From assembly GCA_964187785.1 (NCBI GenBank), contig OZ076409.1, positions 61,196,001 through 61,260,000 of the forward strand: DNA of 64,000 bases. The letters run 5' to 3'. Position 1 is the first letter of the stretch. Every line of letters begins with the position of its first letter. This stretch comes from Amphiscolops sp. MND2022 (taxonomy: Eukaryota). The notes under the pieces were generated by a model. It did no database searches. It was not told the origin of the DNA and worked only from the letters and a program-made list of their open reading frames with translations. The position numbers and the translations under genes were made by a program. Shown here one piece after another: positions 1,472 to 47,317 of the stretch.

Positions 1472-1489
1472 TTATTATTATTAAAAGTA

Positions 1490-2551: not shown

Positions 2552-2554
2552 TTA

Positions 2555-3892: not shown

Positions 3893-3922
3893 GCGGCCCG
3901 TATCGGGATTTCCAATACCACT

Positions 3923-4157
3923 GTCCAAATACAGAGAGCCATGAGCGATGCGATAAGTACTCAAGTACTTCCTCAAATCCAAAATGTTATTATGGCCAGA
4001 CCAGGACATGGGACCAGAAAAAGATGGGACGCTCTGACCGAGAGACCGGAGCTAAATTCCGAAGTTCAGCGAAAGCTTAACGCAAAGAGTAGCTTAAGAA
4101 ACGAACAATATGAGAATCAATTGAACGATGATTACCCTGAGCTAAATGCTCACGACA
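3923..4157 (+). repeat. Gypsy-A 5' LTR, retained 3' part
   Basis: Matches 18430-18663, ends ...CACGACA and abuts TGG. Confidence 0.9.
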
Positions 4158-5284
4158 TGGTGACAGGAGACAACGAATCTCCAAATCAAGTTCCTGAGTT
4201 TCTCACAGGACGAATCACATCCAGAAATCATCTCGACAGGTCCTTTGAGGACATCAACCTCGACACGACGATCCCAGCACAAGAAAGAATCGCTACGGCT
4301 GCTGACTCCGACCCCATCACCCGACTGGCAGACGTCTTGACTACAATGCAGAATAGACCGACAGCCCAACAACTCACCATACGCCCAGTCAACTCAAATA
4401 CCATGACATTCGATGGCAAAAGTGAAAAATTCGAGCTGTTCGAAGACCTATTTCACACTATGATCAAGATGCAGCCAGCAATGACTGAGCAAATGAAGAT
4501 CAATCACTTCCACTCTTTATTGAGAAAGAATGCCCTTCAGACATTCAGAAATATCAGCTCAAGCAACCGACAAACTCTAGAGGACGTATTAGTCATCTTT
4601 AGACGGAAATACGTCAAACCCGAGTCACAGGCGACTGCCAAACATAAATGGCACCGTCTGGTCTTCGATCCCAACACAATGAAGCTGCCTGATTTTCTCG
4701 AGGAATTAAACCAGGGAGCCGAGAAGGCGTTTGGTGATCATGCGCAGAAAATGGTTGACAGCTTGCTTTACGCAAAGCTGCCACCTAAGCTGAAGCGGTC
4801 TGTCAACATGGCCAGATTAGAAAATGGCTCATATGATGAAATTGTTGCTCATTTGGAGAGAGAGTTGGAACTCAACGCCCTTGAGGAATCAGATGACCTA
4901 CCAATGGCCACAATGACCTCCTCGACTACAAAATCTAAAACTCCTCTGTCCACCGGGCAAATGTCAGACATTACTTGCAATTATTGCAAGGAAAAGGGCC
5001 ATATGGTCAGAGACTGCGAAAAACCTAAAAAGAAAAAAGAAAAAGATGCCCAGCAAGGCAAACAAACACAGAAGAAAACGTATCCGGAGTGTAGCACTTG
5101 TGGTAAAAAGAACCACCCGGAAGAAAGATGCTGGCAAGGAGCTGGTGCGCATCTCAAACCCAAACGCACCAGACCAGATGACGCCAATGACGGCAAGCCC
5201 ACTTCAAAGGCCCAGAAACCGCAAAATAGACCAACATCTTCAAACCCACAATCCTCATCCTCTTATGATGAGTCAAAAAACTAA
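3941..5284 (+). CDS. gag: Gypsy-A Gag (true N-terminus lies further upstream in the LTR)
   Basis: Capsid-like FDGKSEKFELFEDLF region; zinc knuckles CNYCKEKGHMVRDC and CSTCGKKNHPEERC. Confidence 0.92.
   Translation: MSDAISTQVLPQIQNVIMARPGHGTRKRWDALTERPELNSEVQRKLNAKSSLRNEQYENQLNDDYPELNAHDMVTGDNESPNQVPEFLTGRITSRNHLDRSFEDINLDTTIPAQERIATAADSDPITRLADVLTTMQNRPTAQQLTIRPVNSNTMTFDGKSEKFELFEDLFHTMIKMQPAMTEQMKINHFHSLLRKNALQTFRNISSSNRQTLEDVLVIFRRKYVKPESQATAKHKWHRLVFDPNTMKLPDFLEELNQGAEKAFGDHAQKMVDSLLYAKLPPKLKRSVNMARLENGSYDEIVAHLERELELNALEESDDLPMATMTSSTTKSKTPLSTGQMSDITCNYCKEKGHMVRDCEKPKKKKEKDAQQGKQTQKKTYPECSTCGKKNHPEERCWQGAGAHLKPKRTRPDDANDGKPTSKAQKPQNRPTSSNPQSSSSYDESKN
4158..4169 (+). promoter_or_regulatory. 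Primer binding site TGGTGACAGGAG (possibly tRNA-Leu type)
   Basis: Begins with TGG immediately after the LTR end; identical 12-mer at the same position in Gypsy-B (53475-53486, -). Confidence 0.8.
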
Positions 5285-8200
5285 CTTCGCCACAACTCCA
5301 ATACAACGAACTGATATCCGTCCGCCAATACATCAGGTCGGATCCTCCAATAAAAACTTTTCATCAGTATACACAACAATTGATGGGCTATCCCTCTGTT
5401 GTCTGGCAGCAACAGATGGACAAAGCTATCATCATCACTTGTAACAACACCCATTTATTCCAAAAACCAATTCCTGTTTGGGACCCTGACTATACCACCG
5501 CCTTTACTACCCGGTTCAGGCCCATTCCCCTAGTCGATAACTACAATCCAACGTATATCGATCAAGACTACGGCAGAGATCCCTATTGGGACACCGAGAT
5601 CTATAACCAAGAACTATTACAATTTCAATACGTTCTAGATGATATTAAACACTACAATCGGACAGTCCACGAGAACCCTCCAATCACCCACAATAAGAAG
5701 ACCAGAGCATTAATTGAAAACTGGCAAATGAATGATGGCACAAACCATCCAGTGTTCCCAAACCCATTGGGGACCGAGACCCATGACAGCAATGTTGAAA
5801 CCATACCACAATCATTGCTAGACGAGAAACAGTTCCAAAATGTCTTAATCACTAGAGACGGTGAACCAGACTGTATACCCCTGTCAACCAACATCAACCT
5901 CAAATGCAAAAAACGCATGTTGTATTTCCCAATGGACTTTGGGGAATTGACCATTGACGGACTCATTGACACTGGAGCACTGTCCAGTGCAATTCCTGAA
6001 ATGGACCTCCGGAAAATTCGACTTTTATCTCCACAATCCGTTATCCGGGAAGGTCCGCCTCCGAATTTCCAAACAATGGTCGCTAATGGGCAATTGGAAA
6101 CTCCTGAGAGTACAATAGAGCTCAAATTTGAAGTTGGTGACATCGAGTTTCACGAGATTTTCATAGTGATGGAACATCTGACAGGTCCGATCATTGGACT
6201 AATGTTCCTTCAAAGAAACCATACAGTCCTGGACATGCGACAAGGGATACTGAATTTCCCGTTCTTTTCGATGCAGCTCAAAACCGCTGACCATAAGTAT
6301 TCAAATGTGTTAGAACCAATTCTCAACCCTATTGAGATAACTATTCCACCAAACGATAAAGTCCTAATTAGGACCAATTCCCTACTCTACCCTGAGAATG
6401 CTGTCACTGGACTTTTGCAACCGAGCGAACTTCTACATGAAGAAAGCGACATCACATTTTGCCCAGCTTTGGTCACTCTGAATGACGGCAATATATTGAT
6501 ACCAGTGAACAATTTCACAGACCACCCTTATAAACTCAAAAAGGGACTTCATATTGCCAATTTCTCTGTCATGACGCCAGAACAGATGAAGTATGTCAAA
6601 CCGGTAGATCCGACATCAACTTGGCACCTTTTGCAGAATGACCAGGAACAAGCAGCCCACTATGTCAGCAGTCTCATCAAGACCAATAGAAATCCACAAA
6701 ACTCCGAAAATTATTGGTTCCCGACTCCAGAAAATCCTGGAAATCCTGAGGAACACACATCTATACAAAAACGAATCCTTCGAGAATTACAGGCCTTACA
6801 GGACCTGGAGACACTTGACCCCACCAAAGACGAGGAATCGCGTGCAAAATTCTCAGAAAACTTTGACTGGAAAGATTCCACCCTTACTCCTGAAGAGAAG
6901 GAGAAAATTGAGGAATTGTTAGTGGATATCCATAACATCTTTGCACGCCACCGATTTGATATAGGCATGAACGAGGAATTCAAGGTGAAACTGACGCCTA
7001 AGGACGATTCCCCAGCCTATAGTCAAAGCCTTCCAGCCCCTATCAACTTGAAGGAAGACAACCGAGCTGAATTAGCCATGTTACACAAATATAGCATAAT
7101 AACTACGCTGCCATTTTCGAAATATGCGAGTCCAATATTTGCACAAAAGAAACCGAATGGGAAAATCCGACTCTTGGTTGACTTGAGAAAAATCAACAAC
7201 CTCATCTCGGATGATTATATCAACAATAATCACCCCGTCAGTACACTAGTTGATGCTGCCCAACACTTGGCAGGCAAAAAAACTGTTCTGTAAATTAGAC
7301 TGTTCGCAGGCATACCACTGCCTACCAATGACCGACCAACGTTCAATCGAAATGTTGGCTTTCAATTTTGCCAGTCGCACATTTGCCTACAGACGTCTGG
7401 CACAAGGCCTTAGTCGGTCACTATCCGCATTCTCGAGTTTCATGAGGGAATACCTCGACAAAGTCATTAAAGCGGATCAGTGTGCCCAGTATGTGGACGA
7501 TATCGGCATCGCAGCCAACGATGCTGACCACCTCATGACGAACCTGAGAGCTACGTTCAAATGCATTCAGGAAGCAGGCCTTAAGTTAACAATGCACAAA
7601 TGTCACTTCGGTGCAAAAGAAATTGATTTTCTCGGACGGACTATTACCCCACAAGGCGTCAAACCCCAGGAACAGAACGTGCAAAACTTCCTGGAAAAGA
7701 CCAAATTCTCGAAGTCGAAAAAGGCTTTACAGCGATATTTGGGATTCCTAAACTACTACAGGAATTATGTCCCAAGACTCTCCGAACGCCTCGCTCCATT
7801 CTACAAGATGCTCAAAAGTGACGAAAAGGTCCTAGTATCGAAAGAATTAGTCCAACAATTCGAAGAAATCAATAGAGCACTAGACAAATGCTGCGACTTG
7901 GCCCTACAGCAACCCATTCCGAACAAGCAAATAGCACTAATGACTGATGCAAGTTTTGGTGCAGCCGGGTACGCGGTCCTAATTGAAGACGACCCAAGCC
8001 AAAAATTTACATCACTCAGAAAATCGTATGCACCGGTCGCATATCGATCAAAAACTTTCACCCCAGCACAGATCAAGATGTCAATTTATGCCAAGGAATT
8101 CCTTGCAATTTATTTTGCATTCAATGGATTCGGACATATCTTCTGGGGTGCGCCGAAACCGGTCATCATCCTTACGGACAACAAAGCTGTCACGAGATTT

Positions 8201-10494
8201 TTCCATACGAAAATAATACCCCCAGCCCTGTGGAACGCGTGTGATTATGTCATTCAGTTCAATTTTGTCATAGCACACATCCTAGGAGCACAAAATACAG
8301 CTGCCGACTATTTGTCCCGATTGGAAGCAGATCCGAAGGACAAATTGGTGATGAAAATTCGTGAAGATGTACAAACACTACCAATCGAAATCAATGTCCA
8401 ATCCGCAGGGGTGTCACAAGAAGAACAAATCTTCTACACCAAGACGACGACGAGACAGAGAGAACAGTTTTGGGCAAGAAAAGAAGCAATCAGGAAGAAT
8501 CCAGCAACTGATGAGCCCACTGTTACCATAAAAACTCTGTCAACAAATCAGGTCAAGCAACACCCCGATATACAAGTCCGATTGAGGAAAACGATCCAGA
8601 TCATTATCGAGCAACCAAAAGATGCAGTACTACAACAATTGAAAGCAAAACTGCTTCATGAAGAGTATTCAGAAAATCTACTGCACCAGGATGCCCGATA
8701 TAGACATTACGCAAACAATCTGGAACGAATTGTACTAAAGGACAAAATCCTGGCAAGGCAATATTTTGATGAAACAGGGAATGTTAAATACCATCAAATT
8801 TTGCTCCCGCAACATTTACTCCAGGAATTGCTCCAATCTCTTCACGGGACGGCGCATAAACATCATGGGATTTCAAAACTGTTACAGGAAATTAGACAGA
8901 AGTAATACTACCCTAGCATGGCTAAACACGTCAAAAAGTGGGTAGAAGGGTGTGAACAATGTGCCAGAGACAAAAGAGTCGCACCTAACGCCTAACGCAA
9001 CGATCACACCTGAGCTGCTCAACTTGCCCGAATGGGACCTTGGACCTGAAGACGCCATGCAAATCGACCTATTGCCAAACCTTCCCCCAAGTGGAGGATA
9101 TGAAAATGTCCTAACGGCAATTGATGTATTCTCCAGATATTTGTTCGCCTATCCCCTTACGGACGCATCACCGATCAACGTAGCAAAAGCGCTCATTGAC
9201 ATCATGACTAAACACTCATATCTACCAACGACTCTTATCACTGATAAAGGTACTGCATTTACTTCTACAATTATTGCGGAGGTTACGCAGATTTTGGGCA
9301 TCACACTCAAATGTGCAACAACGAAACACCCGCAGACAATTGGGAAATTGGAGCGAACTCATGCCTCATTGAAAACAAATCTCAAAATGGCATGTGGGGA
9401 ATATCGCCGACAATGGCACAAATACTTGCCATTAGCAGTACTGAATCATAATACTAGTTATCACGCCAGCATCGGTTGTGAACCGACGAGAGTATTTCAC
9501 GGAAGAATTTCATTTAATATTTTGGATCACAAGCTTGGAAATAATCCAAACGAGCAGATTAACCCCACAACCGAATTTGCTGAAGAAATCCAAAACCGGA
9601 CAAAAATCCTGATTGACAAAACGAAGCAGAACATTATGCAGTCGTATATCAAGTATAAAGAATATTACGACCGCAAAGCAAAAGCCGCTCCACTAAAAGA
9701 GAACCAATACTGTTTTGTCTTACAGCCGAAAGCGGATAATCAAGGATCAAAAATTCCATTCCGCGATTACCGTTGGGTTGGACCATTTGTAGTCCAAAAA
9801 ATTCTGCCAAATGAAAACTATTTAGTACGACGGATCAATACAAACAAAACTCAAATTTTGCATCGAATTCGCCTTAAAAAGTTTGTCTCTAATCAACCGC
9901 TTGAGGACAATTTCCGAGAACAACGATTGCAGCCAGACGAAGAAATTGTCATTCCAAGATGATATATATATCATAACGTGGGAAACCGACTTTGGCGAGC
10001 AGCTAGTTACACGAGACAGCGAGACTATTCCGACTAGAGTGCCGAATGGCGAACAGCCGAATGCGGCAGAAACGAATACAAATGACGTAGCCGAGAATGA
10101 AGCGGATTACATAATCACGCGAGAAGTAACGAACAACGACAATGCGGCGCACAGCCGGAATGACCACTTAAATGATGACGTCACTGAAAGAAATGAATCT
10201 ACTGCAGCCACCGAAAATGAAGAATCTGATTGGCCGAATCCGGCCGTTTCCCCAAAAAACCAAGAAAAATCATTGCCGAATACGGCAGGTAGACCGGAAA
10301 ACGATGAAAATTTTTCAAAAAGAAACTTGACGAATGAAAACGATACACAAAATTCTCCAAACAGGGGGGAAAATATTATCGTGCCCGAAATATCCGAGAA
10401 TGATATCCGAGATGAAAGTCTGAGTCCTAGAGGAGGGAAATATAATCTCAGGCCTAATCCTAATCCGAACTACTCAGAAGACTTTAGATACTAA
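5281..10494 (+). pseudogene. pol: Gypsy-A Pol (protease, dUTPase-fold-like segment, RT, RNase H, integrase), disrupted
   Basis: LIDTGA, RLLVDLRKIN, YVDD, TDAS, ADYLSR, H..H..C..C, IDLL...TDKG...LER, GPF motifs; frameshifts near 7280, 8990 and 9956, and a stop at 8903-8905. Confidence 0.95.
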
Positions 10495-10721: not shown

Positions 10722-13700
10722 CTAGTCTTTAGAAGAACCTTGGACAGGCTTCTTAGAACTCGAGGAAAGACTTGAACTGCTGCTGCCTTGCCTCTTTCTT
10801 CGCAACTTAGAGGGGAACTTCAAGGCAGACTCATCGGGGACGGACGAAACACTCCTCTCCTCCAAGCGAACTGAGCGAGCAACAGAGATGGATGTAGTGA
10901 GCTTATACGAAGCCAATAAGCTCTTATAAATTTTCGATAGCCAAAACACATCAACATACGTCCACGGGTCATAATCGGCACCAAAGGCAGATTGTTCGAA
11001 GGTAGCACTGAGATGCGAAAATTTATCCAAATTGGCATCGGTAACGCAACAGAGATGGAATCGGGAACGGAAGAAAGATAACTTTGGCAGGGGGCAAGAT
11101 CAAATCGGTAAAACGTCCACGATAACCAGTGGTGTCTACACGCCCAAATAACACGGGAGGATACTGAGGACTGGAACTAGTCAAGCACAAACAACACAAT
11201 TTGAACAAATAGAGCAAATGTTCATGAGTCTGGAAAAACTCTAGCCCCATAAGGAAGTCAATGAGGTCCTTAGAATTCTCTAGGAGGTCGAAGTCAGGAG
11301 AGTAGTTCACTCGCAGATGGTCCAATAAGGCAATATACTCCTCCCGGCAAACATCTTGATTATCAGCTGAGACCGAAGACCGATGTTGGAAGGTAGCGTA
11401 CAACAAGTCAAAGTGACGAAGGCCAACTTCTGAAGGTCTTTTGAACAAAATGAAAGGGTCGAAAGCTGCCAACCCCTTCACAATCTCCGATTGCAGCCCG
11501 GTTTGATTGAGGACCTCCTTCAAGAGATACTGCACGAAATGGAGGCCTTCCCGAGCAAAACTGGAAGTTGCCTCGTCCGCCGTCTTCTCAATTACAGCCC
11601 TCTCAGATTTCTTTTTTAGGTGAACGATTTCAGCACTCTGTTTGCTTGCAGTCGCTACTTTGTTCACCAAGCGCAGTCGAACCAGGAAGTCCTCCTCAGT
11701 AAGAAATTTGCCTTCACTGATGGCGAAACCAAGCAAAAGGAACCAGGCGTTCTCAACAGGAATCGTCTCGGGCAGATAACAGCGGGAGCACAACTTGGAG
11801 ATGAATCGACAGACTTCCCCGCAAAGGAAGAAAGCAGCATCTCGTCTGCCCTGAAGGTTGACAACGAAACTGGATACGTCTGAAACACAACCGATCACAT
11901 GGAAAAATCCAACTATGCACCTAGAGACCAACCAAGGAAACGTGGCCTATTACCCTACCAGGATTCAAGGTCTTGGAATATGGAAATAGAGGCAAACAAT
12001 GATAAATCTAAAACGGTCCGTATACTTACAGTCACTGATAATGCGTTGGAAGAACTCTAATTTCACAACAAAGAAGGTGTCGCAGATGAGGGACCATTCA
12101 AAACTCTGAACCTGTAACATGACCTAAGTAAGTTACATGTAACTGACGTCACCGATCCATTAACCGATTGGCTTTGAAACCAACTAATTGGAACTCAAAA
12201 GGCCCGAAGAGAATTCTTACCTGGTTGTGAACCCCTTGCATGCCTTGATGAGGAGTGTGAGCAGTCAAATAGGAACGCACTGCTTTCCAGTTTTTTGACA
12301 AATCACGACAGAGACCAGGAAGATCAGGCAAACTCAATTTGCAAGTGGAAATAGCCTGAAATGAACCTCTGTTAACCAATGCATCCTGTGTACTAGTCAA
12401 CACTGCCACCCTGTGAAAGGAAAGAAACCAACTTGAGATAATTCTGGTGATTGCATTGCCCAATCCTCATCGGCAGCAGACCCTAAGGACACCACTAGAC
12501 TCTTTAACACAGAAAAAAAGTCGATTCTGCCGAACACACTGTAAGTGGGTTTGCGCATCATGGTTTGCAGGTCCAAATGCTCGAATCGGAAACAGCTCTG
12601 CACTGCTCGTGAAAACAGTGCGCATCTGTCAATGGTGCAAATCAGCTCAACGGGACAGCCGAAACAGGCGACTATGTCAGCTTTGGTAGACACGACCGAG
12701 AGAAATCTGGAAAGGGACCCCATTTCTCCCGTTAGGTCAGTTGACGGAAGTCTACTTCGGCAAATGAAGACTCTGCACAATGAGTCTCCTTTCCAAAATC
12801 TCACAGACATGAGCTTATTGACTCCAGCCCGCTCGTACTCAAGGCCGAAGCACTGTGTTGCCGCTATCTGTTCTGCCATGTCCTCCATGGCACAGGTGAA
12901 GATGTGCTGGAAGATTGCCTTAAAAGAAAATAAGAATACTAAACCGGATGTTTACATTACATCTCGGTAGTTGAAAAGAAGCAAAACTACCAACCGAGAC
13001 TCTCTCTTCACTCCAGTCAAAGTCGCAGTAGCTGGCTTGGTAGTTAGTTAGGGCGCCGACTTATGACCAAATTCGTCGCAAAATGGATAGATCTCCCTGA
13101 TGCTGCACAAAATCCGCAACGAGATGGATCTGGGTCTTGGCACGAGAAGCTGGAGTCACAAGGGTGGTCGCAGTTCCCTTGACGAAATCGTCGTAGAAGG
13201 GGAAACGTTCCCTGATATCGACCAGCTAAGCATGTATGAAGAGAGGGAGTTCTTTAGCCAGTTCTATCTTGGTCAGAACTCTGCCGTTTCTGCCCCTCAC
13301 CCGATGCTGCACCTTACCAGTGACAGGATGGACGCTCCTCAGGTGTTCATAGCGCCATCTCTGGTCCTTGCGCAAATGTTTTTCTGTCCGATGATGTCGT
13401 AAAATCTCCAAAGTGCCCTTGGACTTCACTGAAAATTTCTTTTTGCAGATATGACACCATACCATATGAGGACTGTGTAGCGGGTCGGCTGGTCCGGAGA
13501 TGAAAGATCGGGTACACCCAATCTTCGCAAAGAATTCCTCTTTCATGGGAACTCCTCTGGTGGGCCTGCGTCGCTTCTTTTGGGGCTCTCTTTGAGTCTT
13601 GCTTGGACGTGGTGCCTCCTGGTGTCGCAACTCTGACAATGTTGCATCCAAGCTCGACTGCCCGGTCGACTCGTGACCCTCGCTCTGGGGGCCGACATCA

Positions 13701-15006
13701 ACTGCTCTTTGACTGGTCGGGTCAGGTTCGACCTCATTAGGCTCCTTGAAGGCCCGAGAAATTAAGGCCATTTCTGCGGAACTGTCAGTCTCGTTTGGAG
13801 AATCAAAAACCCCATCCTCACTCTCAGTATTGGGGTCTCCGAACGAATCGGTGCCTGGCCCGGAATCATCATTACTCTGCGATCCATCACTGATGTCACT
13901 GAGGTCTCGTGGATGAGGAGTTTGTGCCCTGTGCCTGATTTTGAAATGGCCCGTACGAGACTCGGCCGTAACTGGGGCTCCTCTGACTGCGCCAAGCACC
14001 ATTTTTTCCATGGCCCTGTAAGACATCTGCAATGTCTCGTCGGTGAGGACACGGAGGAGGTGATAAACCTGTGGCTCCGTGAAGGCAACAGTCCGATGGC
14101 CTAGGGGAAGAGAGACGGTTGCGGCATCTTCATCGAAATATTGCTTCAAGATAGCCCTACTCCGCCCAGATAACTCCCTTAATTCAGGGTGAGGTGGACC
14201 TGCAGTTGTAGGCCTAGATCCAGCAGCCGAGTCCTTGGGAACACGAGTAACGGTGTCTTCTCCACTTGATGATGGGTTGTGAGGCGCAGGGATAAAGCTG
14301 TATAACTCAGGGCAACTAAGGTGGCTTGTTCCATCCCCTGTCTCTTCTGTCTCAGTTCCCTCGTCTACGAACCGTACTTTGTTTTCCCCTTGGGGAAGCT
14401 CTGGGGCGTCACAAAAAGACGAACTGTCGTCAGTCTCGAGCTGGAGGAAAAAAACTGCAGACGTTTCATTGTTGGGATTGGTGGCAGGTAATAGTTCTGG
14501 TAGTATGGTTCGAGAGGAAGTAGCAACTCTTAAGCTATTTTCCAGCTGGGTCAAATTCATTTCCAACTGGGTATTGGAAACCCCTGGAGTTGGGGTGCTG
14601 GCGCGAATAATTGGGGAAATGGGATCAGTTTGGATCGGGTTGATGGGAGAGACGTTTGTAGCACCCTCTTGGGTCTGTGTTGGCTCTCTTCCTTTGACTC
14701 CTTCGGACTCTGCAGTCTTTTCGGGCTTTTACCGGCTGGGTCAATATTCGGTGTTGAAGTCAACCCCTGGACATGCTCGTAAACCCTGTCCCTTTCTTCA
14801 GCATATGTAGTGACATCAACGTTGCTGTCAGTACTGCTGGGGGAGATGGGAGCTCTAAGGGGAGGAAATGGCGGTGGAGAAGGCATTATATTCGGTGTAG
14901 ACTGGATGTTGGAATCAGAGGCTGGTGTCGGTCCTTCCTCGGTATTTTCATTCCCTAAATGGAAGGAGATAAAATTAGGCGGTATGCTTCCTTGGAAGAA
15001 ATCCAT
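10722..15006 (-). pseudogene. Gypsy-A antisense 5-exon gene encoding a BED-finger, hAT-transposase-like protein (exons 15006-12995, 12918-12433, 12355-12221, 12111-12030, 11879-10722)
   Basis: Four GT..AG introns whose removal joins the ORF fragments in frame; WCHICKKKF...ILRHHRTEKH zinc finger; colinear homolog in Gypsy-B with the same exon lengths; this copy has stops and frameshifts in exons 1 and 5. Confidence 0.85.
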
Positions 15007-16048
15007 TTTGCCGCGTTAGAAAACTTCTAGAAGTGTCTTTCAGTTTGGCTATTTAGTCGAAACATGTGAAATAAAAAAAGAAACAGGAAGCGTTTGTGAA
15101 CAAGTTTTGTCTCTGATCAAGTCAAAATTGTTCAAACTATTAAAAGAAAATCCAGACCAACCTGACTTTGACGCCATGAAACTGCTCCCTTTGGAGGATG
15201 AGGTGTAAGCCTACAGGGGAAGGAGTCTATGGGGAATAAGCCGAATACGGCGGTGATAGAAGACTCAGAGATACTGGTTCTGACGGAAGGTGAGGAATCA
15301 GCAACAAGGTTCGTGAAGCGTAACAGCAAATAATCCCAAGGAACGAGAATTGCAGATATAAAGGAATTTGAATTGGATAAAGGAATTGGAAAATTGGAGT
15401 TCGTGGCTGAAGGAGATTTACCAGACTAATATGATTTGATTATTTACATATTTTTTCTGTACATGGAGTCTGCCAGCGAAATGTACAAGGATCTCTTCAT
15501 TATTTACAGCTTATTTAGTTATAGGCCGGTTATGGCCGTTTGCCCTGTTTTGTTTTGCCGTTTCGTCCAGTTACCCTAGTTCCCCTTGGATAGAATTTTC
15601 GCCATCTTGAATTATTTGGATTTAATTTTTTCGCCATTTTTGTTATTCAATTTTACAATTTATCAAAGCTTGATTCTGATTGGCTGAAGCCATTACGAGA
15701 AAATTGGTGGCGCGTGCCGTTAATTGCTTACAAGCGACCCGTTAATTACCCACTTGAGACAGGTGTAGTTGATATTCATAAGTCGAGCGTCATTCACACC
15801 TCTTCTAGTGATGACACTGATGAGGGGTAAACATCAGGTTATGAAAGGGAGCCGACTAATAATGGAATTCCATTCAGAAAAGTTTACGACGGATCAGAAC
15901 AACCAACCGAAGTTCTAACCGCCAAGTTGGAAACTTCGGGAAAACACCTTACTCGGCTAAATTCTTGGATTTGACAAATTCATTCTACCCTAAACTTCAT
16001 CACGATTCAGTTGCATCTACAAACTTCAAAATAGCGAAAAAAGCCATC

Positions 16049-16831
16049 ATGAGCAAATACAATCTCGCAAGGAAGTTATTTGACTTAGAAGAATTCGACT
16101 CGGACGGCTCTGAGAAATCTGTAAATTACATATCAAGCAGCGAGAGCGAAGCGTCGGACTGGGGAACGGATTGTTCCACCGACACGGAGCAGCTGATAGC
16201 GCGGATAGAGAGAGAAGTAACATCTAGCCCTATGCTCATTGGGGGAAGGGTAATGACATCGGAGATACCAGAAGAAGATGTGTCAGTGGCTGGACCAAGT
16301 ACCTCTGGTGCAAATGCTGAAAAGACGCCAAAAATGGACCATAAGTACTTTGACCTAGAAAGGTGCTATGCTCCCCCTAAGATGATGGAAAAGTCACGCA
16401 TCGAAATATGCAATACAATCTTGCCAGTTCTAGAGTCCCCGATGTCGCCACCAGATCATGAAAGAGGACCGAGTCAAGATACCCCTTTAGTCCAGCCACC
16501 AATGAGCGGGTTCTATGCGTCCTACCACATCCAAAACACCAGACCCTCTGACAACCTGAGCAGTCAGAGATATACTGGGTGCATGGTGTGTGGGAAAACA
16601 GTGGACGAGATTAAAGACGAGAAGATCAATTGGTATATGGAGAGATCAACGCCACGCGGAGAACCCGAATTTGTCACCAAACTGAGACGAGAAGCTTACA
16701 TAAACGGATTGAATGCAGGTAGTCTACTTTTCATTGCTCCCGCAGTGTCGCAGGCTGCCGCCTGTGACGGAAATAACTATACTACAGCGGCAGAACAAGA
16801 CCCGACACCAAGAACACTACCAATTTACTGA
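16049..16831 (+). CDS. Gypsy-A ORF3, unknown protein (acidic N-terminus, CxxC), ending inside the 3' LTR
   Basis: Open frame 15965-16831, first ATG at 16049; homologous to 41591-42469 (ESPxSPPxHERG, CxxCGK, SQAAACDGNNY). Confidence 0.8.
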   Translation: MSKYNLARKLFDLEEFDSDGSEKSVNYISSSESEASDWGTDCSTDTEQLIARIEREVTSSPMLIGGRVMTSEIPEEDVSVAGPSTSGANAEKTPKMDHKYFDLERCYAPPKMMEKSRIEICNTILPVLESPMSPPDHERGPSQDTPLVQPPMSGFYASYHIQNTRPSDNLSSQRYTGCMVCGKTVDEIKDEKINWYMERSTPRGEPEFVTKLRREAYINGLNAGSLLFIAPAVSQAAACDGNNYTTAAEQDPTPRTLPIY

Positions 16832-18663
16832 ATACAGGCTATGGACTTTAGAAACTTGTCCTTATTCAACGTTAGTTGTTATTTTGTGTATTCATGTAAT
16901 AGTTTCATATTTAGATGAAGTTAATATTAGTCCGTTAAAATTGTACAATTTGGAGATATCCAAATTAGGCTACTTTGTAAAAGTGTGCAGTTGAGATGTA
17001 TGTAAATTGTTGAATCAAAAGCAGTATTAATAGAAGCAACTGTAAAGCGGTATAGGAAACGAGTTCAAGTGACGCCCAGCGATAATCCAAAAACGTCACT
17101 TGAGCTCATTTTCTTAACCAATCACAGCGCTTCAATTCACGAGTGCAATATGACGTTGTTTTGGTAGTGGCCAAGTATGGCCAATTGACTTAATGTCCAC
17201 GGAGTGTTTTATGCTTTGGTCAAATGGCCGGTTTAGGCCGTCTTAATGTAACGAATGATGCTGAATTATTTGTACCCATAATTAACCATATTGGTTGGGG
17301 ACTATTCTAGAAGTGCTTTAACATTAAAATAATACTAACGTACCCCTCAACGGACCAAATGAACTGAACGCTGATCAAAGGCCGAATAAGGCCTTTTACC
17401 CTTTCCTCCCTTAGTATTGTACTATTAATCAGGATTTGGCCAATTTCAGCCCTTTTAGGAACTACCCTATTATAGTGATGCAGTGATATTTAAATAGATT
17501 GGGCATGTATTATTTGAATTTGCTTCCCCCTACGTTGACCTATAGCCACGTGGTGGCACGTGCTAACACTGCATACCAGTGCTACGAGCCTCACATTCCA
17601 TTAACAAGCTTAACATTTGTTGACATTACAATAATAATATGTAGAATAGATATGTTGTTTGAAGTACCGTTAAGAATATTTACCATTATGTTAATTGTTT
17701 GGTGTTGCATTTCGGGAAACAAACATGTCAGGAATTCTCCCAATCAGGATTTCACAGAAATAAGTGATTGATGTTTTCCGATGATATGGAAAATATGTAA
17801 ACAGGGATTTTTATGGTGCAGATACCTTTCAAAACCCATACCTGTTAAATACCAGAGATATGTAAAAATCAAGTGCATTACATACCTTACAATGTCAATC
17901 TTGGATGAAAATATGTAAAATATGTGAGTGTCACCCGCTCAGGGGTATAAATACCGGTGTTTAGCCTGAGTGGGACACAATTCATATCATACGACTCTAG
18001 AAAAGATTGATCTCCAAACGGCTTCGCTGTTATTTCCGTATTGATTAATTTGTTATTGATTCGGATTTTTTTCAATGCCCACCACTAGAAAGCAAAAGAA
18101 AGCAAGGAAGTCTAGAGGACTTGAAATGTTATCCGATATTGAAAATCTGGATATCATGTTAGGTGAGAACCATTTTGGTACCCAGAAAAGAGAAGGTAGC
18201 TTGAATAGCAATCTACCTAGAAGATCGAGGAGTTTTGCAAGTAATGAGTCCGAAAATGAAGACGGAAACGGAGGTAGACCTAAGAGAAATATTGACTCTA
18301 GGATGAATGCCGAATGAATGTGACCGCAATTCTGTCACAGGTGATTCTAGCGCTGAAACAAACAGGTTGTCCAGCGAATTAAATTCTCGTATTTCAAGGG
18401 AAATGGACGAGATGATGAATTCTGTGAGTGTCCAAATACAAAGAGCCATAAGCGATGCGATAAGTACTCAAGTACTTCCTCAAATCCAAAATGTTATTAT
18501 GGCCAGACCAGGACATGGACCAGAAAAGGATGGGACGTTCTGACCGAGAGACCGGAGCTAAATTCCGAAGTTCAGCGAAATCTTAACGCAAAGAGTAGCT
18601 TAAGAAACGAACAATATGAGAATCAATTGAACGATGATTACCCTGAGCTAAATGCTCACGACA
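16746..18663 (+). repeat. Gypsy-A 3' LTR (~1.9 kb, TGTCG...CGACA)
   Basis: End defined by the match to 3923-4157; start inferred from TGTCGCAGGCTGCCGCCTG, identical to the directly defined Gypsy-B LTR start; TATA-like TATAAATA at 17946-17953; disrupted gag 5' part from ATG 18075. Confidence 0.82.
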
Positions 18664-18691
18664 AACGGCCTGAGTTCAATATGGCTCATGT

Positions 18692-18871
18692 TCAGTTTTT
18701 TGTTTCAAAAAAGTGTTTTAGATCTGAGAACTTATGATCTGAGAAGTATGAGAATTTTTGAAATAGCCGTTGTATTCTAGCTAGAATACAACGGCCATTT
18801 CAAAAATTCTCATACTTCTCAGATCATAAGTTCTCAGATCTAAAACACTTTTTTGAAACAAAAAAAACTGA
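18692..18871. repeat. Spacerless ~180-bp palindrome
   Basis: Arms are reverse complements about 18780/18781 (..TATTCTAG|CTAGAATA..), with one mismatch and a homopolymer length difference. Confidence 0.92.
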
Positions 18872-40118: not shown

Positions 40119-40736
40119 TCAGGTCGCGTAGACGACAGAGAACAGGTACCACTTGTCATGATCATCCCTAATGTCTAATGAGCTTATTGAGCTATCTCTA
40201 GAATGGGGATGACTGTTTAAGTTTGACTGTATTCTGTTTTGGGTATTCCCCCAAGCACTTTGGTGCTTTTTACCTTCGGTGTTCCTGCTTAGTCTACTGG
40301 ACCTTGAGTCCACATTTGTCCCTAACCCGCTATTTTGTCCTGACAACGACCTTTGGATTGAAGGAAGGATTGAATCGTGAATTGCAGAATTAATAGACTC
40401 TGTAATTTGTGTGTCCAAATTCCTCTTCAGTTCATCTATTTTCCTATTCATTTGGTGGGATATTTCTTCAGAAATAAGCCTGTTAGTCTCCATAGTCATT
40501 TCACGTCTATTTCTATCTTCTGAAGTTAATAGCGTTCTAAAATCCTCGCTATTTCTGACCATGTCGGTCCTTGTCCCATTAGACCTTAAGTCCACTTCTA
40601 CATTTTCATTCGGATCAACGTCTGATTGATTTTCCTGGTAATTTCCTAACATGACATTCATATTCTCAAGATCTGACATTACGTCTGATTGCCTTGACCG
40701 TTTTTCCCTTGCCTTTTGCTTTCTTGTGGAAAGCAT
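40119..40736 (-). CDS. Gag N-terminal region duplicated in the 3' LTR, reading out into flanking DNA
   Basis: Near-identical to 53353-54069 up to DDHD; the last residues come from host flank. Confidence 0.7.
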   Translation of the reverse strand: MLSTRKQKAREKRSRQSDVMSDLENMNVMLGNYQENQSDVDPNENVEVDLRSNGTRTDMVRNSEDFRTLLTSEDRNRREMTMETNRLISEEISHQMNRKIDELKRNLDTQITESINSAIHDSILPSIQRSLSGQNSGLGTNVDSRSSRLSRNTEGKKHQSAWGNTQNRIQSNLNSHPHSRDSSISSLDIRDDHDKWYLFSVVYAT

Positions 40737-41742
40737 TTAAAATATTCAAGTCCAAACAATAATCTATTGTTTGCAAACAGTATTTCTATCAACAGAGCTA
40801 AATACAACAGTTGAACAATAATATCGTTGGGAGAGAACAAATGAAACACGGTTGGGTTCCAAGTTTAGAAGTAGTTGAGAAACTGGAATTAATCACAATT
40901 GAGGTTGTAGTCTACGTGCAGTATTTGAGAGAGATTGATCCCTGGGACTTGTGGTCCCTAAATATATAGTTGTGGAAGCATGACACGCAAAATTGCTGTT
41001 ATCACCTTACCAAAAATAGCAACTTCGCCCTAACGTCACAATGACGTTATGTGAGTAATTCTAAAAATAGCACCTATTTGCGGGCAAGTTGTGTCAAGTT
41101 CCAAAAATAGCATCGGGTAATAAACCAGTGGTCTAATAGAGCATCAAAGGACTAAATGGGGGGGGGGGGTAAGGCGGTGAGCCTTTCATCTGAGGTTTCA
41201 TGTCATTCCAAATTATACTATTTTCATGGTAGCAAGCAACGCGTACATGTAACGGACTGGTGGTCCAAAGCAATTAAGCAGGACTAAATAGAAAATAACA
41301 CACTGCAACGTGATTGGCTAGTTATCTAATGTACCACGCGTCCAAATTGACTAACGCTGAGTACAATTTGAATTCGTTTCCACTTTACTGTACTGTTGCA
41401 TCATCATTTACATTTCCATTACTAATATAATTTCCAGCTTTGTGGTTTGCATGACAAAGTATACAAGTGAATATATAATCAGACTAAAATAGCATGTTTT
41501 GTTAGGTCTGGGATAGTAATTCAACTATATGTCAACTGTAGGCAAGTAGACCTGTGGTCCATAATTTGATAAATCATTGACTAAAGTAACTTATAAGTAC
41601 AGTACATTCATAAGAGTTGTTTTAATTGGACTAGCAGTTTCTGTGTACTGAAGCGGCAATACTCCGGTAGGAAGATACATTTCACTAGCTTCATTTGGGG
41701 TGACTTGGTAGTTGTTTCCATCGCAGGCGGCAGCCTGCGACA
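40154..41742 (-). repeat. Gypsy-B 3' LTR
   Basis: Direct repeat of 53487-55073; about 40 differences counted by eye. Confidence 0.96.
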
Positions 41743-42469
41743 GTCCCCGGGGGATGAGGACAAAAGCGCCTGCTTGCATCCCTGCTTGAAAAGCATGTCG
41801 TCTACGCTGTCTTGTCTCGTAGAACTCACCAGATCTATGTGTTCTTTCTAAATAGTCGAAAGTTACCTCCTTTTGAATTATGTCCGCTGATTTGCCGCAA
41901 ATTAGACAGTCTCCATGTTGTACAAGATTCTGCACCCCACAGTGTCCGCTCGTCCTTACTGCCACTCCTGTTATGTGTGAATTAGGGGGACAGTAAGGTT
42001 CGTCTCGATCCCATCTGGGAGTCACAGGGTAGGTTTGTTGCCCACGCTCATGTGGCGGCGGTGATTGAGGAGATTCCTGTAAAGGCTCCAATTGGCTGCA
42101 GGCTGATATTGGATGACTGTCTACGTCCTCTGGCCCTACTGTCGGTGGGTGTAGTCCCAACACAAGATCTATTAGCTCGTCGTTGGGCTCAGAGACGAAG
42201 TAACTGAATTGATTGCAGAGGGAGTCGTCCTGAGACTCACTATCCACGCAATTGGATAGATCCAATGTCATGCCCCTTCCTCCTACAGTCTTAGGGACGG
42301 AAACGGGGGCTCCTCTGTAGCACGTGATCACTTCAATGTCGCTGTCGTCGTTAGGGTCCACTTCCGCATCGGAGGACGGACAGTCCACTTCCATTTCTTC
42401 GTCTGATGATTGGTTTGTGAGGCTCACCAACGGTTGAATCGACTCTTCGACGGAAAATTGTAAAGACAT
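41591..42469 (-). CDS. Gypsy-B ORF3, unknown protein ending inside the 3' LTR
   Basis: Intact 292 aa ORF homologous to Gypsy-A ORF3 in its C-terminal half. Confidence 0.8.
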   Translation of the reverse strand: MSLQFSVEESIQPLVSLTNQSSDEEMEVDCPSSDAEVDPNDDSDIEVITCYRGAPVSVPKTVGGRGMTLDLSNCVDSESQDDSLCNQFSYFVSEPNDELIDLVLGLHPPTVGPEDVDSHPISACSQLEPLQESPQSPPPHERGQQTYPVTPRWDRDEPYCPPNSHITGVAVRTSGHCGVQNLVQHGDCLICGKSADIIQKEVTFDYLERTHRSGEFYETRQRRRHAFQAGMQAGAFVLIPRGLSQAAACDGNNYQVTPNEASEMYLPTGVLPLQYTETASPIKTTLMNVLYL

Positions 42470-43758
42470 CTCGAGTAAGTGTCTATTCAGGAACAGTTTC
42501 TTAGCTATTTTGCTAGGTTATGCAAATTGTTCTATCTGAATTCGGCGAAAATTGTGAGGTGAATGATTCTTCTGATTTTACTGTTTTCCAAGATTTCTTT
42601 CTAGCCGGCGGGGAAAATCCGTGGCGGGTAATAGAGAAGATATTATTCCCAAATATTTCCATTTTCGGAAGTCCCCGTGATTTTGCTTCTTTAATTACCC
42701 TCATCATATTGGTAATCGCTCGTTCAGATAGCCCTTGAGACTCTTTCAAGTATTTGCCGTTATAAGTTAGGTGATCTTAACTGTTAGTGAAAGTGTTTAT
42801 TAACACTAATCTTCAATCAACAATAATCATCAAAGACCACCGGTCCGCCTCAACTAGTGACAACCTGCTAACCAATCAAATTCTACAGATAAATGAACGA
42901 ATTTTCTGAATGCAAATTTTGAATACATGAATGAAGTAATGGAAAGTGATGAGTCTAATCTGAAGATAATGGTCGAAATAGTGTACTAAAGGCAAAAGAT
43001 TGTAACAAAGGGATAAGAATTATGTTCTGATCAAATAGGAAGTGTACTTCTCTGACAGGTTCAGTAACACTCCGAACTATAATAAAGATGTATTCTTAAC
43101 TAATATTAGATCGGTTGGTAAGCCAAGGTACATGTAGCCACGACGTCCTTTAATTTCAAGTAGGAATGCAGGTATAGTGATTAGGTAATTAACCGTCTTG
43201 ACAGTCAGGCGTGGTAGTATTAAGTATACAATGTATGTGTTGACATAAGGTCCATTTGACGTAGTTCATTGCAAACCATATTGGCAGCATCGATTTCCCA
43301 TCTGAGCATTTGAATTCTTTACTCTCTATAACTATTTGAATTGCACACTGTGAGCATTCTTAGACAGATCTGTTCTCTCTAGGTTGCCTTTGATCTTGTA
43401 CGGCTTAACTTTTTGTCAAAGTAGCAGCATCGCCCGCAGAATTACATCCTTTTGGACTGTGAGTCGGTCCGACCTACTCTGGCGTAAATTCTTAGCTCAG
43501 TACATCATTGTGTTTTTGTTGACTTCTGCAGCAATTATTACGACTTACAGTCAAATTTCTAATACCGACAGTTGTAGCCTGAAGAAAATTCTGCCTGTCA
43601 AGATAGACAAACATCAGGTTGGTTCTTTTTCAAAGTATTTTGTCAATATTGAGCTTGATCAGGGCTTCCCATTGACTAAGTAGTCACTTCCTCCATCGTG
43701 AACTATTCAACAATAGGTTTGAACAAATAACAAACTTGCTTTCGAAAGACGCGATAGA

Positions 43759-46700
43759 ATGGATTTTTATAGCGGAAATGGATCGCGAAAATTCATTTCT
43801 TTTCGTTTAGACAACGAAATGAGTGGCCAACCAGCTCAAGACAACATCGAAGCAATGGAAACTGACCAGGCGCAACTGGAGCAACCGCAAGAGCCTGAGG
43901 TCATCGAATTGCGGACAGACCTAAGGTCCGTTATCGAACTTTCTTCTACCACAGATTCTGAAAGCTGCGAAGCATATTTCACCAGAAAGATCGAGTGTCT
44001 CACAAATTCAGAAGAGGACGTTACTGCTGCCACTAATGCAACCTCCAATGTGGCGAGAGCTAGTGAGAGCGAGCCTGTCGCTGTTACTCCAGGTCTCAAT
44101 GAGATGATACCAGACGCGAGCCGTCCTGTTGATGCTCCCGACGTTGTTTTTCTGGATAAGGCTACTGTCCAAGCAGCCATTTCCGAAGCCATTGATCCAA
44201 ATTTTGCTACAGATGAAACACCAATAATTGAGTCTCAGACCACTCAGACAACTCTACCTGAGGGCCAGGCGGTCCAGCAAAGCGAAGTTACCCCAGCCTC
44301 AAGTCCTACGGACGAGAATGGGGATGTTCAGGGACAAATGGACTACCGGTCTCAAACAGAAGACGAGTCTTGTCCTGGAATGGACACCGATACTGGGTCT
44401 ATTGCTAGATCCACATTAGCCCAAGCCCTCTACAGTCCCTCCAAGCCCGGCAACGTCTCTCTTCCCCAAACATCAAGTCAGGACATGAGTGATCCATTAC
44501 CACCTGAGCCTAGGGGACCCACTCCTCTTTCCAGTACCAGTAGACTGATCATCAAGCAGTGTTTTGAGGAGACAAACCCCACATACCTCTCTCCTGGGCA
44601 TATGACTGTTGCGTTCAATCAAGATCAAATCAACAGCATATTACGCATTGTAGCTGATGAGAGTGCTCGTGCGTCATACGAGATGTTAAACAGCGTGGTC
44701 GTCCGCGCTAGTCGACTGAACTTACACAGTCCCCGTGGTACTACTGCCCGAAAACACACTCAAGAAGGGTCTCACCCTGGCACTGATACAGATGTGGGAA
44801 GTGATTCCGTCATGACCTACGATACGAGAGGTAGTGACAGCAGTCCCGGATTTACCAGTGGCCTAGAGTCCAATCGGGACTTTCAGTCCTCATTTGCTCT
44901 TCCAGTCCCCCCCTTTGTCCTCGAGAAAATCAACTGGTCCAAAGGAGTTCCCCCGTCTCCTTTGACTGTTCCAGTCATGGAACTGAAACTTTGGCAGCTC
45001 TAAGGCAAGAAGCCATTAAGGAAAAGGAAAAGGGGAGATTGCCACCACAAGTCCAACCAAAGTCTAAGAGACCATCAAGGCCCAGGAGAAGAATTGGGAG
45101 GATTATGAAGGAAGAGTACTTTGATAGCATGCCATGGACACGTGTATTTGTTTCAGGACCATTAGACCCCAAATGGAATCCCAATAAGATCTACTGTCAA
45201 ATCTGTAAATGTAATGTGTCCATTAAGACTAAGGGCCTAAAAGAGATCTTGAGGCACTACGCGACTGAGAGGCATCTTCGAAAAGATCAACGTTGGAGGT
45301 ACGAGTACCTGCCCATTGAGGACCCCATCACTAAAAAACTGCGCCATCAGGTGAGAGGGAAAGATGGGAAATTCTTTCCCATTACCAATTGCGACTGGAA
45401 TTGCCCCTGTTCATCAATGCCGAATTGGTAGACATAGAGGAGAAACTCCCATTCTATGAGGAATCTATGTCTGGAGCTGATCACATGGCCTCATCCCCCC
45501 AAAATCGAGCTCGAATACAAATTTCAATCTTGGGGCACTATCTCCCACTGTCTGGTGACGTTTCTGTCCTCCGAACCCTTTGGCAACACACTGGAACTGT
45601 TGTGAATCATCAGGCTCTCTTCGCAGACATTGACTGCAGCACGGCTAAATTATCGATGAGTGGTCTCCATCTGGCTTTCATACTCATTGTCTAGTTGGGT
45701 ACTCAATACTGTCATTGAATAGTAGTTAGGCCATCATAGGTAAAGCAGACTTGGAGTCAAGGATCAGTTAGCACTACCTCAAAGTTTAGGGTTGTCAATT
45801 CAAGTACTACAATGTGGTCACCGGATTGTATTTGTTCTAGGTGTTGTTTCACCATCTGTTCCAACAAGTCGTCCCGAATCTTGGCAATGACATCCTCACT
45901 GATGGCCAATATTCAATTGAATTCGAAGTTCAGGGAGTGTTCCTCCTCCTGCACGTTCGGTTATGGAAGAAGGACAGGCACTGTCGAGTGTACCTCCAAA
46001 GGACCGGGCGTACTACCGGACGTTGCGCAGCCGAGTTGTGTCTGCTGTCCACCTTGCTCGCTGCTATATCATCAGAAGCAGATTTAGTGTGTTGCTCCGG
46101 TGCCACCCAGAACTTCGTTCAGCTAGTTGACGACTCTCCTCTTACCAACCACGGAGTACAAAGACCCACCACCTTTGATGATATTGCTATCAAACGCCTA
46201 ATGCATCGGGACAGCTACAGTGTGTTTGGTCGTATAGACTTTTTATCTGTACTTCATTATCTAGTTATCAGCCTGGGGGGAAGTTTATATTTGGAGTGGA
46301 CCTTACTCACCCCTGAATTAGTCAAGGTTAGGACCTTTAACAATCCAGTTGTCGACGTAAGTTAATTACACCTACGATTTGTTGCTTTCGATTTAGGCCA
46401 TAAAGTCGAGTCGACTTGACGTAGTAACTGGGCCAACCCTCTGCCAAGAATTAATTGCGAACTGGAAGGCTGTCACAACATACCTCACAGCACATGTGGT
46501 ACAACAACAAATGCAAGGAGTTCGTAGCCAGGTTGGGAGTCCCTTCCTTATCAGTCTTCTGGTCCACAGTACGTCTTGTGTTCAAGTCTTTTCATTTCAG
46601 CCCCAGAGCCTTGAATGGTCCATCATTCACGATGATTTTTTCACCTGCCATCTCGAGTTATTCCACAAACTAGTCCGTGATTGTTAGTGCTTTGAGATTT

Positions 46701-47200
46701 CCTTCCTTTATTAGTGCATCTTAATGACAGTAATAGGGTCATTTGCAATGCAGTAGTTTTGGTTTCCTTTCGTATAAATGTTCTTTAGGGTTACTCTGGG
46801 ACATAAGACCGAAGGGACGTGAGCTAGTACCAGACTGGTCTTTTATTTTGGGAATAAGTATACAATGCATGACTAATCCTTTTGTTTAGACACAACCAAT
46901 TTCTCACTCAGCCTCAATGGACGACGCGACAGGGCATTCTACTCTTTCAGACAACTGTGTCTGTACCTTCGCAAGCTTGCGAAACGAATTGTATTGCCAA
47001 ACGCCCTTCCTGAGGTGAACGATCCCGCAGCCATCCTGGACCTGGATATAAACGTTGCCCCTGCGCTGAGCGTCACTGTTTTCCTCAATCGCCTGAAGTT
47101 CAGGGCCAAGTTGGACCATGCTTGCAAATTGAAAGCGGAAGTAGATTTTCATGACCAGAAGGGCGAAAAAAAGAAAACACTCGAAGAGTTGACTGCCTGT
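43759..47200 (+). pseudogene. Gypsy-B antisense 5-exon BED-finger, hAT-like gene, 3' truncated (exons 43759-45655, 45841-46326, 46397-46531, 46601-46682, 46890-~47200)
   Basis: IYCQICKCNV...ILRHYATERH; splice sites at positions homologous to Gypsy-A; intron 1 donor reads ATGAGT (probably mutated GTGAGT); CTAAT branch-like motif before the last acceptor. Confidence 0.85.
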
Positions 47201-47317
47201 AGTTATTTGTATCTTTTGTTTGTCTTTCATTATTGTATTTGTGTTGTAGTTGAGTCTAAAGTCAGATTGGTCTCAGAGTCAAAATAGTAAATGGGGACCA
47301 GCAATAAATGAATCTGG

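Follow-up and report, generated by a model that had tools for sequence, protein, structure and literature searches.

A sense open reading frame continuing into the 3' long terminal repeat of two Ty3/Gypsy elements of Amphiscolops sp., a candidate accessory gene

Extra genes of Ty3/Gypsy elements and the Amphiscolops locus

The function is known for few accessory proteins of retrotransposons, CERV among them, and available reviews call the roles of extra open reading frames (ORFs) unknown. In the plant Tat-type Ty3/Gypsy elements Retand, Grande and RIRE2, the region between pol and the long terminal repeat (LTR) is 2.9-6.6 kb long and contains sense ORFs in which neither a known domain nor a membrane helix is seen, together with an antisense ORF with a transposase-related domain (Transposase_28), which in Grande has its own promoter and a nuclear product (PMC11963269, PMC7264820). 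CERV, encoded by the Gypsy element Cer1 of C. elegans, is a nuclear, phospho-regulated, non-env accessory protein with a Cys motif and a predicted multimer (PMC10309623), and foamy viruses express the 3' accessory genes Tas and Bet from an internal promoter (PMC13220597). Here we describe a 64-kb stretch of contig OZ076409.1 of Amphiscolops sp. MND2022 (positions 61,196,001 to 61,260,000, forward strand; hereafter the window), a mosaic of eukaryotic repeats dominated by two related LTR elements, A (+) and B (-), each of which carries a sense ORF, ORF3, between pol and the 3' LTR.

Elements A and B are Ty3/Gypsy LTR retrotransposons. Pfam domains in A (zinc knuckle, protease, reverse transcriptase (RT), RNase H and integrase) occur in Ty3/Gypsy order, both elements are colinear, and their pol DNA is about 70% alike; the RT is remotely similar to its counterparts in caulimovirus, Ty3 and foamy virus, to much the same degree in each case (E 1e-20 to 1e-23). 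As in the plant elements, the region from pol to the LTR is long (6.2 kb in A) and combines a sense ORF without known domain with an antisense gene resembling a transposase. It differs from them in that the antisense gene is hAT-like, with four spliceosomal introns and no match to Transposase_28 (the word 'intron' is absent from the main text of the Retand paper, PMC11963269), and in that the sense ORF is one conserved family running into the LTR. CERV is different again, with 517 aa, a GTPase-like domain and splicing from gag-frame exons at the 5' end (PMC10309623), whereas ORF3 has 260 aa, lies at the 3' end, is acidic and carries a motif of the SUMO-interacting motif (SIM) type. Compared with foamy Tas and Bet, there is no env here and no sequence or fold match, and the likeness is one of analogy only. 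The element is a Ty3/Gypsy element with a complex-retrovirus-like layout, not such a retrovirus, and ORF3 is a new protein family. Judging from sequence, we read ORF3 as a true accessory gene within a Ty3/Gypsy lineage; its product may be an acidic nuclear adaptor or decoy, opposing SUMO-dependent silencing or acting as activator of the element, a tentative reading to which we assign a probability of roughly 45%. No account of this protein, or of its combination with such an element, was found in the literature searched, a scope outside which lay most subscription papers, Repbase/Dfam/GyDB and supplements; an unnoticed consensus entry for the element in a repeat database is possible.

The ORF3 family and its continuation into the LTR

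The original prediction, made from the letters of the window, had listed two intact sense ORFs of about 260-290 aa. Both frames are open, and they are homologous, with 30% identity across 283 columns (E 9e-25); they have 260 and 292 aa and all of the motifs then listed. The second copy lies on the minus strand, in sense to its own gag-pol. Position 15965, proposed as the start of the first, holds no start codon, and the first in-frame ATG follows at 16049 (Table 1).

A profile of the two sequences retrieved 291 ORF3 clusters at 90% identity among 2929 candidates, and the 120 of the 291 clusters listed were all on long ENA contigs and without Pfam domain. With a 43-sequence profile, 628 ORF3 representatives were found at E <=0.001 among 1.84 billion; the best 150 were examined, a sample from which distant relatives in other hosts are not judged. 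Among 267 ORF3 proteins examined, 104 were full length and, together with three added by hand, formed 12 subfamilies below 45% identity. Start, length and C-terminal tail are the same across the 104 full-length members and the 12 subfamilies, and H160, C178, C181, Y196, A216, C239 and P258 are at least 90% conserved in 105 ORF3 sequences. By these comparisons ORF3 forms a large protein family of its own with at least 12 subfamilies, as the predicted conservation required; the family is old enough for this diversity, and its motifs are testable.

DNA of ORF3 was also obtained from two 1.3-kb metagenome contigs (L001 and L002, from 247 pattern matches). In the 55 codons before the LTR, A, B, L001 and L002 have 12 invariant residues, and 11 of the 12 are encoded by silently varying codons; pS exceeds pN (0.70-1.01 vs 0.33-0.45) in all six pairs of the four sequences. 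Because 11 of 12 invariant codons vary silently, this part of ORF3 is selected as protein. The earlier observation that both ORF3s are open while pol is broken was rejected as proof of selection. Pol A has 3 breaks over 5.2 kb and pol B 6 over 5.1 kb, the latter a low count; at these densities a frame as long as ORF3 would escape interruption with a chance of 0.60-0.64 in A and 0.36-0.40 in B, and both would escape in about 1 of 4 cases. Selection is argued from the family comparison and not from openness relative to pol.

The proposed lack of a described domain agrees with all of the searches. Pfam gave no family for ORF3-A and ORF3-B and, across 105 members, no Env and four weak families, each in 1-2 members (DUF6094, Spin-doc finger, Fer4_Nqo3 and Rad50 zinc hook; E 0.002-0.007), which we treat as chance or leads. 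The PDB profile search with ORF3 returned a single match (E 6.6), and the C-terminal 91 aa had no usable match in the ESM Atlas. Two ORF3 models had no fold match at E <=0.001 in PDB or BFVD, the best ones (Z 5.3 and 5.5, root-mean-square deviation 2.5-3.0 over 43-46 residues) being generic helix pairs. Relatives of ORF3, and likewise of the RT, were absent from IMG/VR.

The last ORF3 codons of A and B lie in the 3' LTR, the boundary being crossed at [VL]SQAAACDG, and ORF3-B extends 19 codons beyond the end of its closest relative (P0003). The LTRs of B (1589 bp, 1544/1589 identical, 97%) have TG..CA ends and a 5-bp target-site duplication, and the claim that the LTR start encodes SQAAAC is seen directly there. 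In A, of whose 5' LTR only the last 236 bp survive, the start (16746) was placed by comparison with B, with which it has 19 identical nt in common, the longest word common to the LTR portions preceding the gag ATG.

The codons of S, Q, A, A and A are identical (5/5) in all four sequences, and this freeze differs from the codons before the LTR (Fisher p 0.001 for 5/5 and 0.018 for 5/8, against 1/12). A 22-nt stretch at the LTR start folds in each of the four as a 9-bp hairpin with a 4-nt loop, and the C and D codons that follow SQAAA vary only between T and C, keeping G.U pairs. The residue preceding the S of SQAAAC is V, L or M in 180/181 proteins, with codons that all end in the TG of the LTR. 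Two proteins of a distant subfamily (P0369 and P0381, up to 455 aa) read SQVATC at the boundary, the double change expected from one compensated base pair and probably a single event. SQAAAC had been listed among the conserved motifs; since the codons are frozen as DNA and form the LTR-end hairpin, the codon comparison places SQAAA at the nucleic-acid level, so that it is no evidence of protein function, and we rejected it as a protein signature. In the AlphaFold2 model the stretch has a predicted local distance difference test (pLDDT) score <50. Deeper in the unique 3' region (U3) of the LTR the tail looks protein-like: LP[ILV] occurs near the C-terminus in 11/12 subfamilies, and its Leu-Pro codons differ among A, B and L002. 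The frozen 22-nt hairpin marks the U3 start at 16730-16768 (+), 41720-41760 (-), L001 1185-1215 and L002 1180-1211. Rfam returned 6 weak matches, all below the gathering score.

PMC7264820 sets 8 nt as the minimum for a polypurine tract, and no tract that long abuts the LTR in A, B, L001 or L002. Two purines do so in A, 5 in B, 7 in L001 and 5 in L002, and the nearest purine run of at least 10 lies >500 nt from the LTR in A and B. The missing tract is a departure within Ty3/Gypsy, not a ground for exclusion from it, and these elements offer a way to probe, in nature, what fixes the U3 boundary.

Product, expression and candidate function of ORF3

AlphaFold2 predicts ORF3 as mostly disordered (mean pLDDT 52.6); the C-terminal 151 aa modelled with 105 sequences reach 69.9, and a helical hairpin after the CxxC reaches 86-97. 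A homodimer model of residues 149-260 plus zinc scored 0.67 (0.00 for the best of three controls), with contacts agreeing by at least 70% between runs and pLDDT >=58. The mark used to call a dimer was reached by 21/30 solved pairs and 0/23 single chains of microbes, and by 17/29 solved pairs and 0/30 single chains of eukaryotes. As the best modelled contacts fall on the near-invariant A216, G220, A223, G224 and Y196, a homodimer through the AxxxGxxAG face is predicted, and it would explain the conservation of that motif.

Close to the N-terminus, in a region of low pLDDT, a hydrophobic core is followed by SS and acidic residues. The strict form (e.g., IIYLSSDD, IICISSDE, LVIISSDD, VIYISSSE) is present in 7/12 subfamily representatives, or 8/13 with one representative added by hand, against a mean of 0.04 and a maximum of 2 in 2000 shuffles. 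The pattern matches the SIM consensus and the layout of the phospho-SIMs of PML and Daxx, i.e., a disordered region holding a [VIL][VIL]x[VIL] core and, after it, Ser and acidic residues (PMC9371903); the likeness is one of motif only, and five of the 12 subfamilies deviate. B-type ORF3 has a second SIM candidate, DSDIEVI. All 13 representatives have a net charge of -4 to -35 and contain [ST]PxSP. An Arg pair is conserved and a longer basic patch occurs only in some subfamilies, in a protein that is net acidic; LxCxE was not seen by eye. The highest 19-residue hydropathy is 1.63 in the 104 full-length members and 1.85 in one longer outlier. By hydropathy ORF3 has no membrane anchor, and it is very probably not env, as originally proposed. 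No signal peptide was seen at the called N-termini (hydropathy, by eye), although the true 5' end may lie upstream.

The antisense gene of A has its start at 15006, head to head with ORF3 and separated from the ORF3 ATG by 1.04 kb. In the gap, a reverse CCAAT box precedes the ATG in A, B, L001 and L002 (by 370, 407, 453 and 345 nt); the motif, chosen post hoc like the search range, has 8 sites in the 64 kb, 5 of them in elements A and B. The simplest reading is probably an internal two-way promoter between ORF3 and the antisense gene. Foamy Tas and Bet, nef and sag overlap U3, and the parallel drawn earlier with nef and bel/tas is supported in the U3 overlap, and that with bel/tas gains from the upstream CCAAT box; it is one of position, with no homology to Nef, Tas or Bet found. 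The accessory or regulatory role itself is supported as probable.

ORF3 likely has a short upstream exon or an earlier start. Ten codons upstream of the ATG, KIAKKLFLxR, show five differences between B and L001, each at a third position (chance about 0.002, for a stretch chosen post hoc), and KIAK stands upstream in 9/13 proteins chosen for longer or odd N-termini, with diverged sequence further upstream. At 15810-16048 (+) and 42470-42720 (-), both elements have a common word around an upstream ATG, followed by GT, and AG sites lie just before the KIAKK codons, which outlines a candidate short first exon of ORF3.

In the preferred reading, ORF3 would be transcribed from the internal, probably two-way CCAAT promoter in the gap facing the antisense gene, and its mRNA would end in the 3' LTR. 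The product would be soluble, acidic and largely disordered, with an N-terminal phospho-SIM-type motif and conserved S/T-P sites, and its C-terminal Cys/His knuckle and helical hairpin would dimerise through the AxxxGxxAG face. It may act in the nucleus on SUMO-modified chromatin factors, as their adaptor or decoy, and so release the element from silencing or activate its promoters, and the zinc-finger, hAT-derived product of the facing gene, plausibly a targeting unit, might guide it to DNA. The first 23 nt of the LTR would be fixed by a nucleic-acid role, as integrase end and as a hairpin that may help to define the plus-strand start without a proper polypurine tract, and ORF3 would read through them to a protein-selected LP[IL] tail. 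SIM-dependent effectors silence endogenous retroviruses (ERVs), driven by SUMO-SIM contacts (DAXX preprint, 10.64898/2026.03.21.713205), which makes a dimeric, element-encoded SIM plausible as a decoy. The VANC-like anti-silencing proteins of plant DNA transposons are also transposon-encoded, dimerising and silencing-lifting (PMC11512509); they bind DNA themselves, whereas in the retrotransposon described here DNA binding would fall to the product of the facing gene. If ORF3 does bind SUMO and lift silencing, a retrotransposon would here encode its own counter-defence, directed at a pathway on which the silencing of ERVs and that by PIWI-interacting RNAs centrally depend. Rather doubtful is a wider picture of an animal Ty3/Gypsy lineage with its own complex-retrovirus-like cassette, in which a two-way promoter, a domesticated, intron-bearing, catalytically dead hAT DNA-binder and ORF3 as a dimeric SUMO decoy would make up an anti-silencing system, the plus strand being primed without classical polypurine tract by a coding hairpin and both LTR ends lying inside genes.

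Several points weigh against the decoy reading and its parts. ORF3 was seen in its LTR context in two elements only; the 267 database proteins come without DNA context, and L001 and L002 without pol. The codon test rests on four sequences, and their silent sites are saturated. The SIM pattern was written after viewing the sequences, and the shuffle test overstates it; 5/12 subfamilies, including that of B, have a non-canonical core there while keeping the SS-acidic part, and copy A has Asn at the second core position where close relatives have Ile. No clear basic nuclear localization signal is conserved in ORF3. The dimer pass is a statement of model confidence with the zinc ligand outside the calibration, and the mark is passed by 7/16 true animal pairs and by 1/7 eukaryotic pairs without solved relative. 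The hairpin z-scores are weak in three of the four sequences (-1.1 to -1.5; L001 -5.1), and T or S at the first Ala in 14/181 proteins breaks a stem pair. The hAT call for the facing gene shares 149/256 features, below the 170 usual within a family and at the level of distant relatives, and the Pfam hAT domain was found in 0/7 relatives scanned.

The foremost rival, though unlikely, is that ORF3 works on RNA like Rev or CERV, forming oligomers on an RNA element of U3 or its vicinity and exporting or stabilising the unspliced genomic RNA. It has a precedent in CERV, which Cer1, a Gypsy element, needs for the export of its genomic RNA (PMC10309623), and it would make use of the predicted dimer, of the helical hairpin with its Arg pair (up to RQRRR in some subfamilies) and of a strong hairpin in the U3 of A (z -6.3, LTR 301-400). 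However, ORF3 is strongly acidic in all 13 representatives, the Arg patch, placed on the predicted dimer interface, has only one or two residues in several of them, B has a weaker U3 hairpin of another fold, and no CERV similarity surfaced in general searches, which included no direct comparison. More unlikely still is a particle or integration factor travelling with the complementary DNA complex and steering nuclear entry or target choice, e.g., towards SUMO-rich heterochromatin. The SIM and the conserved free C-terminal LP[IL] tail would suit such a tether, A and B lie in a window of nested repeats, and reviews propose roles of this kind for plant extra ORFs (PMC7264820), but a separate promoter points to an early regulator more than to a packaged protein, neither a protease site nor a fusion to gag-pol was seen, and ORF3 lies 5.5 kb from pol, across the antisense gene.

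Next in order, and again quite improbable, ORF3 might modulate the cell cycle or signalling as small viral oncoproteins do, as a disordered motif platform that docks cyclins or kinases and keeps stem or germ cells permissive. [RK]xLF lies within the first 30 residues in 64/75 A-type proteins, in B and L001 a similar KKLF stands immediately before the ATG, and [ST]PxSP is conserved in 13/13; in this reading they would be cyclin-docking and proline-directed kinase sites. Yet [RK]xLF is not N-terminal in most other subfamily representatives as called, and such short motifs may merely regulate ORF3 itself. An env-like, fusogenic protein for cell-to-cell spread, which the sense strand and the position between pol and 3' LTR would suit and to which an unseen upstream exon could add a leader, is highly improbable in view of the hydropathy values, which fall short of a membrane-length stretch, and of an acidic, disordered product of 260 aa without env Pfam match in 105 members. 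We give the least credit of all to the view that ORF3 encodes no functional protein and is a by-product of cis-acting LTR-end sequence. This holds for the SQAAA codons, whereas the surplus of silent changes over the 55 codons that precede the LTR and the constant start, length and C-terminal tail across the subfamilies already largely refute it for the rest.

LTRs, facing gene and surrounding repeats

Several features go beyond the original prediction: the antisense hAT-like gene, the SIM-type motif, the position of gag deep in the LTR and the missing polypurine tract. The gag ATG lies inside the LTR, at position 1007 of 1589 in B and 1330 of 1918 (18075) in A, and about 195 gag codons run within the LTR and through its end and the PBS-like site (resembling a primer binding site) in both elements. 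Since ORF3 crosses the 3' LTR start and gag the 5' LTR end, both attachment ends of the elements are coding. With gag codons inside the LTR, every 3' or solo LTR carries a promoter and an ORF reading into flanking DNA. The LTR-internal gag stretches are at 18075-18663 (+), 54069-53487 (-) and 40736-40154 (-), and that in the 3' LTR copy of B yields an open frame of 205 aa. Yeast Ty1 likewise has the GAG start within its 5' LTR and a frame that runs on across the primer binding site, but with a dozen or so LTR codons, in a Copia-type element without ORF3. The PBS-like sites start with TGG directly after the 5' LTR and have their first 12 nt in common. No tRNA gene was found in the window, so the 12-mer has no tRNA match there, and no complement of at least 8 nt that would allow self-priming occurs in the LTRs of A or B. 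At the gag/pol junction both elements have the heptamer A-AAA-AAC, presumably a frameshift site.

In U3 of A, a hairpin (17043-17125, +; z -6.3 at LTR 301-400) is followed by a CCAAT box; the same order is found at LTR positions 335-445 of B, where the hairpin is weaker and folded differently. An RNA element or a second promoter is possible. AATAAA is absent from the LTRs of A and B.

The antisense genes of A and B are homologous and placed between pol and ORF3. Their four introns are at matching places and differ in length between A and B, and 7/8 are GT-AG. Gene A combines a disordered N-terminus, a CxxC..H..H finger and a hAT-transposase-like body. The last exon, with 223 clusters of relatives, resembles hAT transposase C-termini (Atlas 0.93; 25/30 matches with Dimer_Tnp_hAT, in 34% and 72% of members). 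Where the first catalytic Asp would be expected, both copies have Glu (by eye, without reference alignment), and no inverted repeat surrounding the gene appeared in a general repeat comparison of the window. As a single protein of 876-2500 aa the gene was found in 0/2195 candidates, as expected if it is spliced; the introns would survive the RNA stage of the element because the gene is antisense. The N-terminal part of gene B holds the SIM-like words EVIEL and VIELSS. With an intron-keeping antisense gene, gag and ORF3 crossing both LTR ends and no canonical polypurine tract, standard LTR annotation will mis-describe such elements.

Table 1. Features of elements A and B in the window
Feature	Position	Strand	Remark
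ORF3-A	16049..16831	+	260 aa from first ATG; frame open from 15863
SIM-type motif position, ORF3-A	16121..16150	+	hydrophobic core, then SS and acidic
Conserved core, H160..CxxC(178,181)..helical hairpin..AxxxGxxAG	16526..16720	+	predicted dimer interface
LTR-start hairpin, A	16747..16768	+	overlaps SQAAACD codons
3' LTR, A	16746..18663	+	1918 bp; start placed from B
TATA-like box, 3' LTR of A	17946	+	
Reverse CCAAT box, A	15677..15685	+	370 nt before ORF3 ATG
5' LTR remnant, A	3922..4157	+	last 236 bp only
PBS-like site, A	4158..4175	+	TGG start; gag reads through
gag (zinc knuckle) and broken pol, A	3922..10494	+	protease, RT, RNase H, integrase
Antisense five-exon gene, A	10722..15006	-	broken in this copy
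Antisense gene introns, A	12994-12919, 12432-12356, 12220-12112, 12029-11880	-	
ORF3-B	41591..42469	-	292 aa; sense to own gag-pol
LTR-start hairpin, B	41720..41741	-	start of 3' LTR
3' LTR, B	40154..41742	-	1589 bp; start 41742 inside ORF3-B at SQAAAC codons
Reverse CCAAT box, B	42870..42878	-	407 nt before ORF3-B ATG
5' LTR, B	53487..55073	-	gag ATG at 54069 = LTR position 1007
PBS-like site, B	53469..53486	-	gag reads through
Broken gag-pol, B	47300..54069	-	lower bound approximate
Antisense gene, B	43759..47290	+	broken; last exon shortened; end approximate
Antisense gene introns, B	45656-45840, 46327-46396, 46532-46600, 46683-46889	+	

Just past the 3' LTR of A, a near-perfect, 190-bp inverted repeat resembles a miniature inverted-repeat transposable element (18688-18875). 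A cluster of AT-rich ORFs without Pfam match lies at 142-3171 (-) and recalls, by what we take to be a likeness, the minor capsid gene and its neighbours in Polintons and adintoviruses. A third LTR element is present at 55457-61928 (+), with 393-bp repeats that are 97% alike and proteins that appear, by eye, to be of the BEL/Pao type.

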